In this document: in pieces, positions 16,601 through 19,600 of the stretch | Layout of the letters: every line of letters starts with the position of its first letter | How positions within the stretch are numbered: the first letter of the stretch is position 1 | Assembly: GCF_057098645.1 (NCBI RefSeq) | Contig: NZ_CM169472.1 | Reading direction: 5' to 3' (one strand) | DNA length: 64,000 nt | Position numbers: made by a program

Positions 16601-19600
16601 TCAATCATTGCGTCATCAGCACGATGAGCAATGTTGTATTCGTTTTGCACACAGACGATTTCGGTAATCTTACGCGCCTCTGCAACCTGCGTCGGTGTGA
16701 CGTTGCTCAGGCCAATATGTTTTACCAGGCCTTGTTGTTGCATCTCTGCCAGCACGGTCAGGCTGGCTTCAATCGATCCTTCCGCCGGGCCATGACCATC
16801 CCCCATCATCACGCGCAGGTTAACCACATCCAGTACGTCCAGGCCGAGATTACGTAGATTATCGTGTACCGCTTTTTGCAGCTCTGCCGGAGAAAAGGCG
16901 GGCAACCAGGAAGCGTCTTCTCCACGCCGCGCACCAATTTTAGTGACAATTGTCAGGTCGTCAGAGTAAGGATAAAGCGCTTCGCGGATAATCTGATTGG
17001 TGACGTGCGGACCATAAAAATCGCTGGTATCAATATGATTGACGCCCAATGCCAGCGCCTCGCGCAGCACGGTAATAGCGACATGGCGATCTCTGGGGGG
17101 GCCGAAAACCCCAGGACCTGCCAGTTGCATCGCGCCATAACCAAGACGGTTAACGGATTTTGTACCGAGAGTAAATGTATTGCTGCTCATCGATACAGGT
17201 TGCGGTTTTTTTATTGCCAGATGCGGCGCTTGACGCGTTTTGTTTTGGTGTCTTTCAGGATAACAGAGCAACCCATCCAGTAATCTTGTTTACGCCCTCG
17301 CATTATTTATCTCTATTCATTTCTATACTGATTTTTCTTAATCCGTTTTATTACAGGGCAGGGTGCAGCGTTGCGGTTTAGGTATCACCTGCTAAAAATT
17401 AGAACGTTCAGCATCAGGACGTTACTGTTTCGGTCGCAGATTCTCATCAAATACCAGGCGCTGCCGGCCAGGTTCAACTTCCCGCAATGGCTCGACTTGA
17501 TGCAACGTCTGCTTACAGCGTGTCACCAGCACCTGATACTCATGCGTGCCCTGCTTTTTCCATGCCAGTTCCTGCTCACTAAGTTCACGAATCGCTTTGG
17601 CCGGGCTGCCGACAATCAGGTAATTAGCAGGCATTTCTGCTTTGGCTTTCACAAATGCGGATGCGCTAACAATGCTGTTCTCGCCAATCACCGCACCGTC
17701 CATCACTACCGCGTTCATTCCCACTAATGCATTGCGGCGGATAATGCAGCCGTGAAGGATAGCGCTATGACCAATATGTCCATCTTCTTCCACGACAGTA
17801 TCCTGCTCGGGAAAACCGTGCATAACGCAATTATCCTGAATGTTCGCACCATCTTTCACCACGATACGACCAAAATCGCCACGCAAGCTGGCATTTGGCC
17901 CAACGTAAACGCCCTTGCCGAGAATAACATCGCCGATCAATACCGCTGTCGGATGGACAAAGCTCTCTTCTGGCACAACCGGAGTCAGACCATCTATCTG
18001 GTAAATTGGCATAACGCCTCCTGTTCAATATTTAAGCCGCCAAAACGTTGAAAATACAGGCTTCCCGGCGCAGGCAGTTCACCGACCGAGGTTTCACCTT
18101 TTTCACTAACGAACGCTAAAGCAGCAGGCGCTACGCGCTGATAAATGTTGATACACAGCTGACGTGCCGTATGCCCTGCCCAGTGTGCCGGAAGCAACTC
18201 CTCCGGCAACAATGGGTCTTTAAGGACGACACGGCGATAAAAATGGATCAGTAAAAGCTGAATATGAAATGCACGCTCCGGGGTTAACTCGTCTGCCGTC
18301 TCTTTTAACAGCGGCACCAGCGGGCGGAATGACTGAATAAAGGTTTCGTACATGGCATTTTGTTCAGTTAAATGCCAGCACTCTTCCACTCTGGCACGCA
18401 GTGCTGCACGAGAAAGCGCCAGTGGTATTTGCGCTTCAAAACAAATCACGTTATCCGCCACACCCGCTTCATGCAAAAGTGTCTGTACATCCGCCAGTTT
18501 TTGCGACGGCGATGCCATCAGGCTGGGCGCCAGTGCACCAAAACCTTGCCAGATCAACTGCTTTTTGACATCAGCCAGCGTCGCTTTATCTAAACCTTCC
18601 GAGAGCAACAGGAGCCATTTACCATCCCATGCAGGTTGCTCTGCGCGATAAATTTTACTTTCTGCCCGTCGCGTCAGGCGCAAGCCTTTATCACTGAGGC
18701 TATAGAAACTGCGTCGCCCGATGCGGGAAACATCCAGCCAGCCTTCTTTATTAAGACGAAACAAAGCGGTGCGCACGAAACGCTCACCAAATCCCAGCCC
18801 TTCCAGCAAAGCAGCCAGACTACCCAGCCAGATTTCACCACCACGATGGGAAAGCGAATCACCATACAGAGAGGAGATCAAAGATGTGCCACTGACCGGA
18901 ACAGCGTTTACAGCATGTTGGATAAAAGTATCAAGTTTACTCATTCGATTCAGTCTGTTGTTATTGTTGTGATTTATGAATCATAGCACAGGTCGTATCG
19001 ACTTCTGGCCCTGGCGCTTTACCCCACCAGGGCCAGACGACACATCAGGCACCAACAATATTACGCAGATCAAACACCCGACACGCCTTGCCTTCTGAAC
19101 GCGGGATACTGCCACAGTTAACGATCATCACATCGGTAGAGATCCCCACCATCGACTTAATCCGATGGCGTAGCTGGTGGCACACCTGGCAACGCTGCTC
19201 ATGCGTCAATGTCAGGCTGCTTTCTTTCAGCTCTACTTTCACAGAAAGTGAATCAAGATGCCCCCGGCGGTTCACCTCCAGTTGGTAATGCGGCGATAAA
19301 AAGCGGAGATGCCTTCATGACGATCTTCTGTTGCCGCCAGCAAGGTGAATAACTGTCGCTCCTGGGCAAGTCCGGCTTGCAAAGCCACTTCCTGCGACTG
19401 GCGCAGCGCTTGCTTTGCCGCTTGTAAGGCCAGCGGCGAGTGACGTGCCATTTTCGACGCCAGCTGTAAGGCGTATTCGAGGGTTAAATCGCTGGGGAAG
19501 ACGTCGCTAACCAGCCCGGCCTGCTGTGCTTGCTGAGCGGTGATACTTTCTCCGCTCAGCACCATTTTGCTGGCTAACGATTTACCGACACTACGGATTA

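Follow-up and report, generated by a model that had tools for sequence, protein, structure and literature searches.

A 4,956-bp deletion joining paaF to the 3' end of paaK in the phenylacetate operon of Shiga-toxigenic Escherichia coli O145:H28

Introduction

The genes for phenylacetate catabolism in Escherichia coli K-12 and W reportedly form a cluster, paaZ-paaABCDEFGHIJK-paaXY (Ferrandez 1998; Teufel 2010). Here we describe an allele of this cluster, found in a 64,000-nucleotide (nt) segment of an E. coli chromosome (GCF_057098645.1, NZ_CM169472.1; hereafter the window), in which paaF runs directly into the 3' end of paaK. Locus, gene order and orientation are those of the K-12/W cluster and the retained genes (paaZ, paaA to paaF, the paaK 3' end, paaX and paaY) share 96.3-99.7% nucleotide identity with K-12, but the window lacks 4,956 bp comprising nt 732-768 of paaF, paaG to paaJ, and nt 1-1059 of paaK. 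The order tynA/paaZ/paaA-K/paaX-paaY is thus that of a paa locus, with an incomplete gene set. We conclude, with a probability of roughly 93%, that this is a real, fixed and lineage-specific deletion in the paaABCDEFGHIJK operon of Shiga-toxigenic E. coli O145:H28. The surroundings differ from K-12 as well. In K-12, ynbG and the autotransporter pseudogene ydbA, disrupted by an insertion sequence (IS), lie between paaY and ydbC/pdxI (from 25063 of the K-12 locus, L005), whereas ydbA is absent from the O145:H28 lineage and only about 230 bp separate paaY from pdxI (window 17191..17421).

According to PMC4951805, the paa locus is a region of genomic heterogeneity where further internal deletions occur; examples are a fusion of paaA with paaK in DEC6A/DEC6B and, in mastitis isolates, deletions of paaZABCD(E). 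Those deletions are of the same kind as the one presented here, being internal to the operon and fusing two truncated paa genes. Compared by description only, ours differs in its breakpoints (paaF/paaK) and in its lineage (O145:H28). Its junction sequence is already public in 25 complete genomes, yet no description of the deletion in O145:H28 was found in the literature searched.

A second point of comparison is offered by E. coli O157:H7, in which, as in O145:H28, phenylethylamine and phenylacetate catabolism appears to have been lost within an enterohaemorrhagic lineage. In O157:H7 Sakai only the ydbA-like BigA/BigB genes are found between ydbL and ydbC, and the whole block from feaR to paaY is gone; correspondingly, tynA was PCR-negative (PCR, polymerase chain reaction) in 28 of 28 O157:H7 isolates (PMC4640556). 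The loss of an entire block in Sakai as opposed to the piecemeal loss in O145:H28 implies independent events, so that O145:H28 would represent a second, independent case of pathway loss beside O157:H7. Such a loss is relevant to the proposed use of phenylethylamine against such strains on meat (as cited within PMC4640556).

The deletion junction

The breakpoints were set by ungapped comparison with two intact operons, those of CFSAN061763 (L001) and K-12 (L005). In both references 4,957 nt separate the unambiguous flanks, hence a net loss of 4,956 bp relative to either. The elements at the junction are the following:

19272..20030, minus strand, paaF' coding sequence of 252 amino acids: 244 native residues, an 8-residue neo-tail (YRRITNWR) and a stop codon
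19299..19301, minus strand, deletion junction, from the ungapped comparison with the intact operons
19045..19299, minus strand, paaK remnant: the last 84 codons and the stop codon, out of frame with paaF' and without the native start
19261..19274, minus strand, native paaK sequence TGAACCGCCGGGGG resembling an IS629 end (12 of 14 bases of the terminal inverted repeat)

The paaF parent matches down to window position 19300 and the paaK parent from 19300 on, the T at this position being the sole base assignable to either; it is located within a run of five T (19299..19303). In the intact operons the paaF parent reads ...CTCCGCTTT up to the breakpoint and CTTACAAAAACGC beyond it, the paaK parent reads ...TTCGAACAT followed by TTATCGCCGCATTACC, and the joined product reads ...CTCCGCTTTTTATCGCCGC. 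With a slash for the breakpoint, the immediate surroundings are GCTTT/CTTAC in paaF and GAACAT/TTATC in paaK. The join connects paaF nt 731 to paaK nt ~1059, and codon F244 of paaF, which spans it, has changed from TTC in the intact operons to TTT in the window. Gene by gene, the loss covers the last 37 nt of paaF (the last 11 codons), paaG, paaH, paaI and paaJ in full, and the first ~1,059 of the 1,314 nt of paaK (about 81%). A search with the K-12 genes gave no match to paaG, paaH, paaI or paaJ anywhere in the 64-kb window, and neither an IS nor an IS remnant is present at the junction.

No multi-base direct repeat is common to the two parental breakpoints; they have just one T in common. 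A pairing of TTT with TTT was considered and rejected, because it would leave three T in the product. As the product has five, the junction carries a microhomology of 1 nt rather than a multi-base repeat.

A sequence-only reading of the window had proposed a deletion that joins paaF with the paaK 3' end and leaves paaG to paaJ missing, and the K-12 gene matches and the ungapped comparison agree in bearing this out, including its placement near 19299/19300, which we narrow to the single ambiguous T. Its estimate of roughly 4.5 kb was about 10% too low, and to its set of missing genes most of paaK and the end of paaF must be added. Its label microhomology-mediated is weak for a single shared T.

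Distribution of the deletion

An 801-bp query spanning the junction was compared with 5,426 complete E. coli genomes. It is matched with 100% identity across all 801 bp in 25 of them, at one place each, and every carrier labelled with a serotype is O145 (O145:H28 or O145:NM; e.g., RM13514, RM13516, RM12581, RM12761 and RM9872). In the 3,141 other paa-positive genomes (3,166 of the 5,426 in total) the two halves of the query lie apart, as they do in the long form of the operon. Since each carrier has only one matching place, neither the paaF nor the paaK 3' end occurs a second time, and an intact paaG-paaK block elsewhere is excluded in these 25 genomes. Both flanking frames are truncated, the missing genes are present in relatives and the junction is reproducible across assemblies, which together are the marks of a pseudogene formed by deletion. 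Being present in 25 genomes and absent from 5,401 others, the junction can also serve as a simple PCR or in-silico marker of the lineage.

The window is identical to none of the 25 carriers, as it has a private IS insertion, a private 175-bp inversion and private substitutions. Nor does it have the ISEc8 and ISEc20 insertions of RM12761 or the nleC prophage of RM9872.

The nearest relative without the deletion is UTME-3 (veal, USA), which is 100% identical to the window in the pdxI-paaY flank and is not among the 25 junction carriers. It keeps paaF, paaG, paaH, paaI, paaJ and paaK, and differs from the window by 6 single-nucleotide polymorphisms over about 21 kb of common flank. At window position 31688 UTME-3 has the K-12 base, and the window, RM9872 and RM12761 have a common derived base. 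UTME-3 also has the feaR stop described below and, like RM9872, the nleC prophage. These few sites suggest that UTME-3 represents a sister lineage whose divergence preceded the deletion. It carries a lesion of its own: 7 bp are inserted close to the 5' end of paaF (~23380 in its locus, L008, corresponding to window 20003), and the annotation has its paaF begin at a later position. In addition, a 1,310-bp IS629-type element of the IS3 family is inserted between paaJ and paaK of UTME-3 and is 100% identical to the element at window 8804..10113; among the 5,426 complete genomes, UTME-3 alone has an IS at this site.

The truncated gene products

K-12 paaF nt 1-735 align to window 20030..19297. The resulting open reading frame of 252 amino acids ends in ...HEGISAFYRRITNWR before its stop codon, compared with a K-12 PaaF of 255 amino acids ending in ...HEGISAFLQKRTPDFKGR; the native C-terminal 11 residues LQKRTPDFKGR are gone. 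The tail YRRITNWR, which follows 244 native residues, reads as the sequence-only reading had given it, and the latter's statement that the crotonase core is kept appears correct, as residues 1-244 match chain A of the E. coli PaaF structure 4FZW. The PGAP annotation names the product PaaF (WP_001292342.1). PaaF normally acts in complex with PaaG (PDB 4FZW). In the window both the native C-terminal segment and this partner are missing, and PaaF' is thereby no complete crotonase with its partner.

K-12 paaK nt 1059-1314 match window 19300..19045 with 97.7% identity, and the remnant matches residues 360-441 of the 443 in Burkholderia PaaK (PDB 2Y4O), which settles that segment 19045..19299 derives from paaK. 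The 84 remaining codons fall within the predicted range of about 75-85 and are, as predicted, out of frame with paaF. The paaK frame over the same bases reads LSPHYQLEVNRRGHLDSL... through to the stop at 19045, and 353 N-terminal codons are lacking. PGAP calls the remnant pseudo ('hypothetical protein, missing N-terminus'), a public label that could be corrected.

Within the paaK frame, an internal GTG (19275) shares bases with the paaF' stop codon (GTGA, 19272..19275), and a Shine-Dalgarno-like GGAGG abuts this GTG with essentially zero spacing. Given the overlap, a PaaK fragment of 76 amino acids could in principle arise by translational coupling. A function for it is unlikely because of the abutting GGAGG and the absence of the catalytic core.

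Formation of the deletion

Genomic deletions associated with IS629 and the IS-excision enhancer (IEE) have reportedly been observed in enterohaemorrhagic E. coli (Kusumoto 2011; PMC9943667). The deletion described here resembles them in that iee and IS629 occur in the lineage, that the nearest relative has an IS629 site in the interval and that microhomology is minimal, and differs from them in that no IS is present at or beside the junction. Two candidate routes are therefore to be considered, namely IS-independent illegitimate recombination or end-joining, and an IS629/IEE-associated deletion.

In the first, a single illegitimate joining of two DNA ends with an overlap of 1 nt would have produced the allele. 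A 1-nt junction is a poor fit to slipped mispairing and is compatible with the joining of broken or resected ends, so that end-joining after a break probably explains it better than slippage between repeats.

In the second, an IS629 copy in the deleted interval or at the paaK breakpoint would have been excised with the help of IEE, leaving a break that was resected and rejoined by minimal microhomology with no scar. We consider this possible, though doubtful. The 1,310-bp element of UTME-3 shows that an IS629-type element can reside inside the interval deleted elsewhere, O145:H28 carries iee together with many copies of IS629 (PMC5567499), and 38-39 places per genome are occupied by IS629. The iee gene is located outside the 64-kb window, its presence in the lineage being known from the same source. 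IEE-dependent excision generates deletions from a few nt to >40 kb beside an IS, and microhomology-mediated end joining is an activity of IEE (PMC9943667). On the other hand, the confinement of the paaJ/paaK element to UTME-3 means that it may be private to that strain, and the junction has neither an IS remnant nor a scar.

The 14-mer TGAACCGCCGGGGG, 25 nt from the junction, adds an ambiguous clue. Outside an IS, it is the window's only match to the terminal inverted repeat of IS629, TGAACCGCCCCGGG, against an expectation of 0.41 matches per 64-kb window. The match was noticed post hoc, the 14-mer is on the retained side and is present in the intact operon too, no similar sequence occurs on the paaF side of the breakpoint within 3 mismatches, and the flanks of two real IS629 insertions that were examined show no repeat-like target. 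It may be a coincidence. Direct cleavage at the 14-mer was rejected as the source of the junction, the sequence being 25 nt inside retained DNA. We regard it as unlikely, but conceivable, that the junction is a natural IS629/IEE footprint left when an IS629 such as that of UTME-3 was excised, with resection of both flanks and rejoining over 1 nt of overlap, the paaK 14-mer perhaps having helped to recruit the transposase. If this were true, IS/IEE events could often lie hidden behind clean 'scarless' deletions in enterohaemorrhagic E. coli.

Decay of the phenylethylamine and phenylacetate pathway

The genes paaA to paaF, the paaK remnant, paaX, paaY and feaB are on the minus strand, and paaZ, tynA and feaR on the plus strand. 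The other genes of the locus are:

17422..18012, minus strand, paaY, intact (K-12 match and annotation)
17994..18944, minus strand, paaX (repressor), intact (full length compared with K-12, no internal stop)
20027..23600, minus strand, paaA, paaB, paaC, paaD and paaE (phenylacetyl-CoA epoxidase genes), full length (K-12 match)
23885..25930, plus strand, paaZ, intact and divergently transcribed (open reading frame and K-12 match)
26178..28451, plus strand, tynA with a premature stop at W669 (TGG to TGA at 28182..28184)
30245..31150, plus strand, feaR with a stop at W60 (TGG to TAG at 30422..30424; annotated 'internal stop')

PaaK makes phenylacetyl-CoA, the substrate of the PaaABCDE epoxidase. 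The same compound reportedly acts as inducer, causing PaaX to leave the paaZ and paaA promoters (Ferrandez et al. 2000, as cited within PMC4640556). The deletion also takes away an isomerase (paaG), a dehydrogenase (paaH), a thioesterase (paaI) and a thiolase (paaJ). With the N-terminal domain of the phenylacetate-CoA ligase gone, no phenylacetyl-CoA would be formed, and the cell would have neither the substrate of the epoxidase nor the inducer for PaaX. Consequently, the surviving paaZ, paaA to paaE and paaF' should be uninducible, would stay repressed and would be useless for phenylacetate catabolism. The predicted phenotype is an inability of these strains to use either phenylacetate or phenylethylamine.

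The upstream half of the route is damaged as well. FeaR is the activator of tynA and feaB, and the stop at W60 of feaR is common to the window, RM9872, RM12761 and UTME-3. It predates the deletion because the undeleted UTME-3 has it too. The tynA stop, in turn, is private to the window, with TGG in RM9872, RM12761, UTME-3 and K-12. RM9872 has a private 1-nt deletion in paaC and a private stop in feaB, and in RM12761 five private substitutions fall within paaZ, tynA, feaB and feaR. Such inactivating mutations in sister strains indicate relaxed selection. As raw counts, 12 strain-variable sites fall in about 12 kb of the pathway segment and 12 in about 20 kb of flanks, a difference that is no more than suggestive in the same direction. 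The deletion belongs to a stepwise loss of the route from phenylethylamine to phenylacetate and is an ordinary case of lineage-specific gene decay in an accessory catabolic operon, in a pathway that other mutations had already disabled.

Alternative readings

Some points weigh against a deletion fixed in O145:H28 and followed by loss of the pathway. Five of the 25 carrier records, and the record of UTME-3, state no serotype. The genes paaZ, paaA to paaE, paaX and paaY are still intact in the window, which could mean that the deletion is recent or that some function remains. We infer the loss of phenylacetate use from gene content, and a clean 1-nt junction cannot reveal by which mechanism it was formed.

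That the fusion is adaptive, with paaF', the C-terminal fragment of PaaK and the intact paaABCDE, paaZ, paaX and paaY serving a new or residual function, would agree with these intact genes and with the GTG that overlaps the paaF' TGA just downstream of GGAGG. Yet the GGAGG has essentially no spacing to the GTG, the fragment comprises 84 C-terminal residues of an adenylate-forming enzyme and lacks the catalytic core, two of the surviving genes are broken in RM9872 (the paaC frameshift and the feaB stop), and PaaX-mediated induction should be impossible without PaaK. We consider an adaptive role very improbable.

An assembly or sequencing artefact, in which a collapsed or mis-joined contig hides an intact operon, can be dismissed for practical purposes, as nothing was found in its favour, paaG to paaJ are missing from the window and the same junction occurs at a single place in each of 25 genomes assembled independently in several laboratories and countries and on several platforms. 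The converse polarity, with an ancestral short form into which other E. coli gained paaG to paaK by insertion, could draw on the variable presence of the fea-tynA-paa block (matched in 3,166 of 5,426 genomes, and absent from Sakai), but is effectively refuted by the truncated reading frames, PaaF lacking its native 11 C-terminal residues and paaK its 353 N-terminal codons and start. The long form is found in the near-identical UTME-3 and in every other paa-positive genome.

Other features of the window

Between paaY and pdxI, a segment of 175 bp (17192..17366) is the exact reverse complement of the corresponding sequence in RM9872, RM12761 and UTME-3, an arrangement matched in one piece by none of the 5,426 complete E. 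coli genomes. No inverted repeats were found flanking it. In RM9872 the paaY terminator hairpin folds with -24.5 kcal/mol (z -5.3); the inversion cuts it in two, leaving -8.8 kcal/mol (z 0.2) for the window, and also puts a different sequence directly in front of the start codon of pdxI. Candidate explanations are a genuine private inversion, an assembly error and an edit.

A lambdoid prophage whose nleC effector gene is frameshifted is integrated just after uspF in RM9872 and UTME-3 (window ~42569, between uspF and ttcA). The window, RM12761, C325 and the Z1323HEC strains have no prophage after uspF and run on into ttcA and dbpA.

Within positions 10200-42500, the window differs from RM9872, RM12761 and UTME-3 at 28184, 32875, 40461, 41397 and 41652, and all five changes are G:C to A:T; position 56723, compared with RM12761 only, is also G to A. 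Among the private G:C to A:T changes just that at 28184 in tynA is inactivating. The others comprise two missense changes (ydbH R535H and uspE R293H), two synonymous ones in ompN, and the intergenic change at 40461.

The IS629-type element of the window (8804..10113, 1,310 bp, IS3 family) is inserted in ynbD and flanked by a 3-bp target duplication, GAC, at 8801..8803 and 10114..10116. The site is empty in RM9872 and RM12761. A query spanning this insertion is covered to at least 80% by only two complete genomes, Evo1 and NZ_CP137705, both of which match it in three joined pieces (98.7%) and over a longer span.

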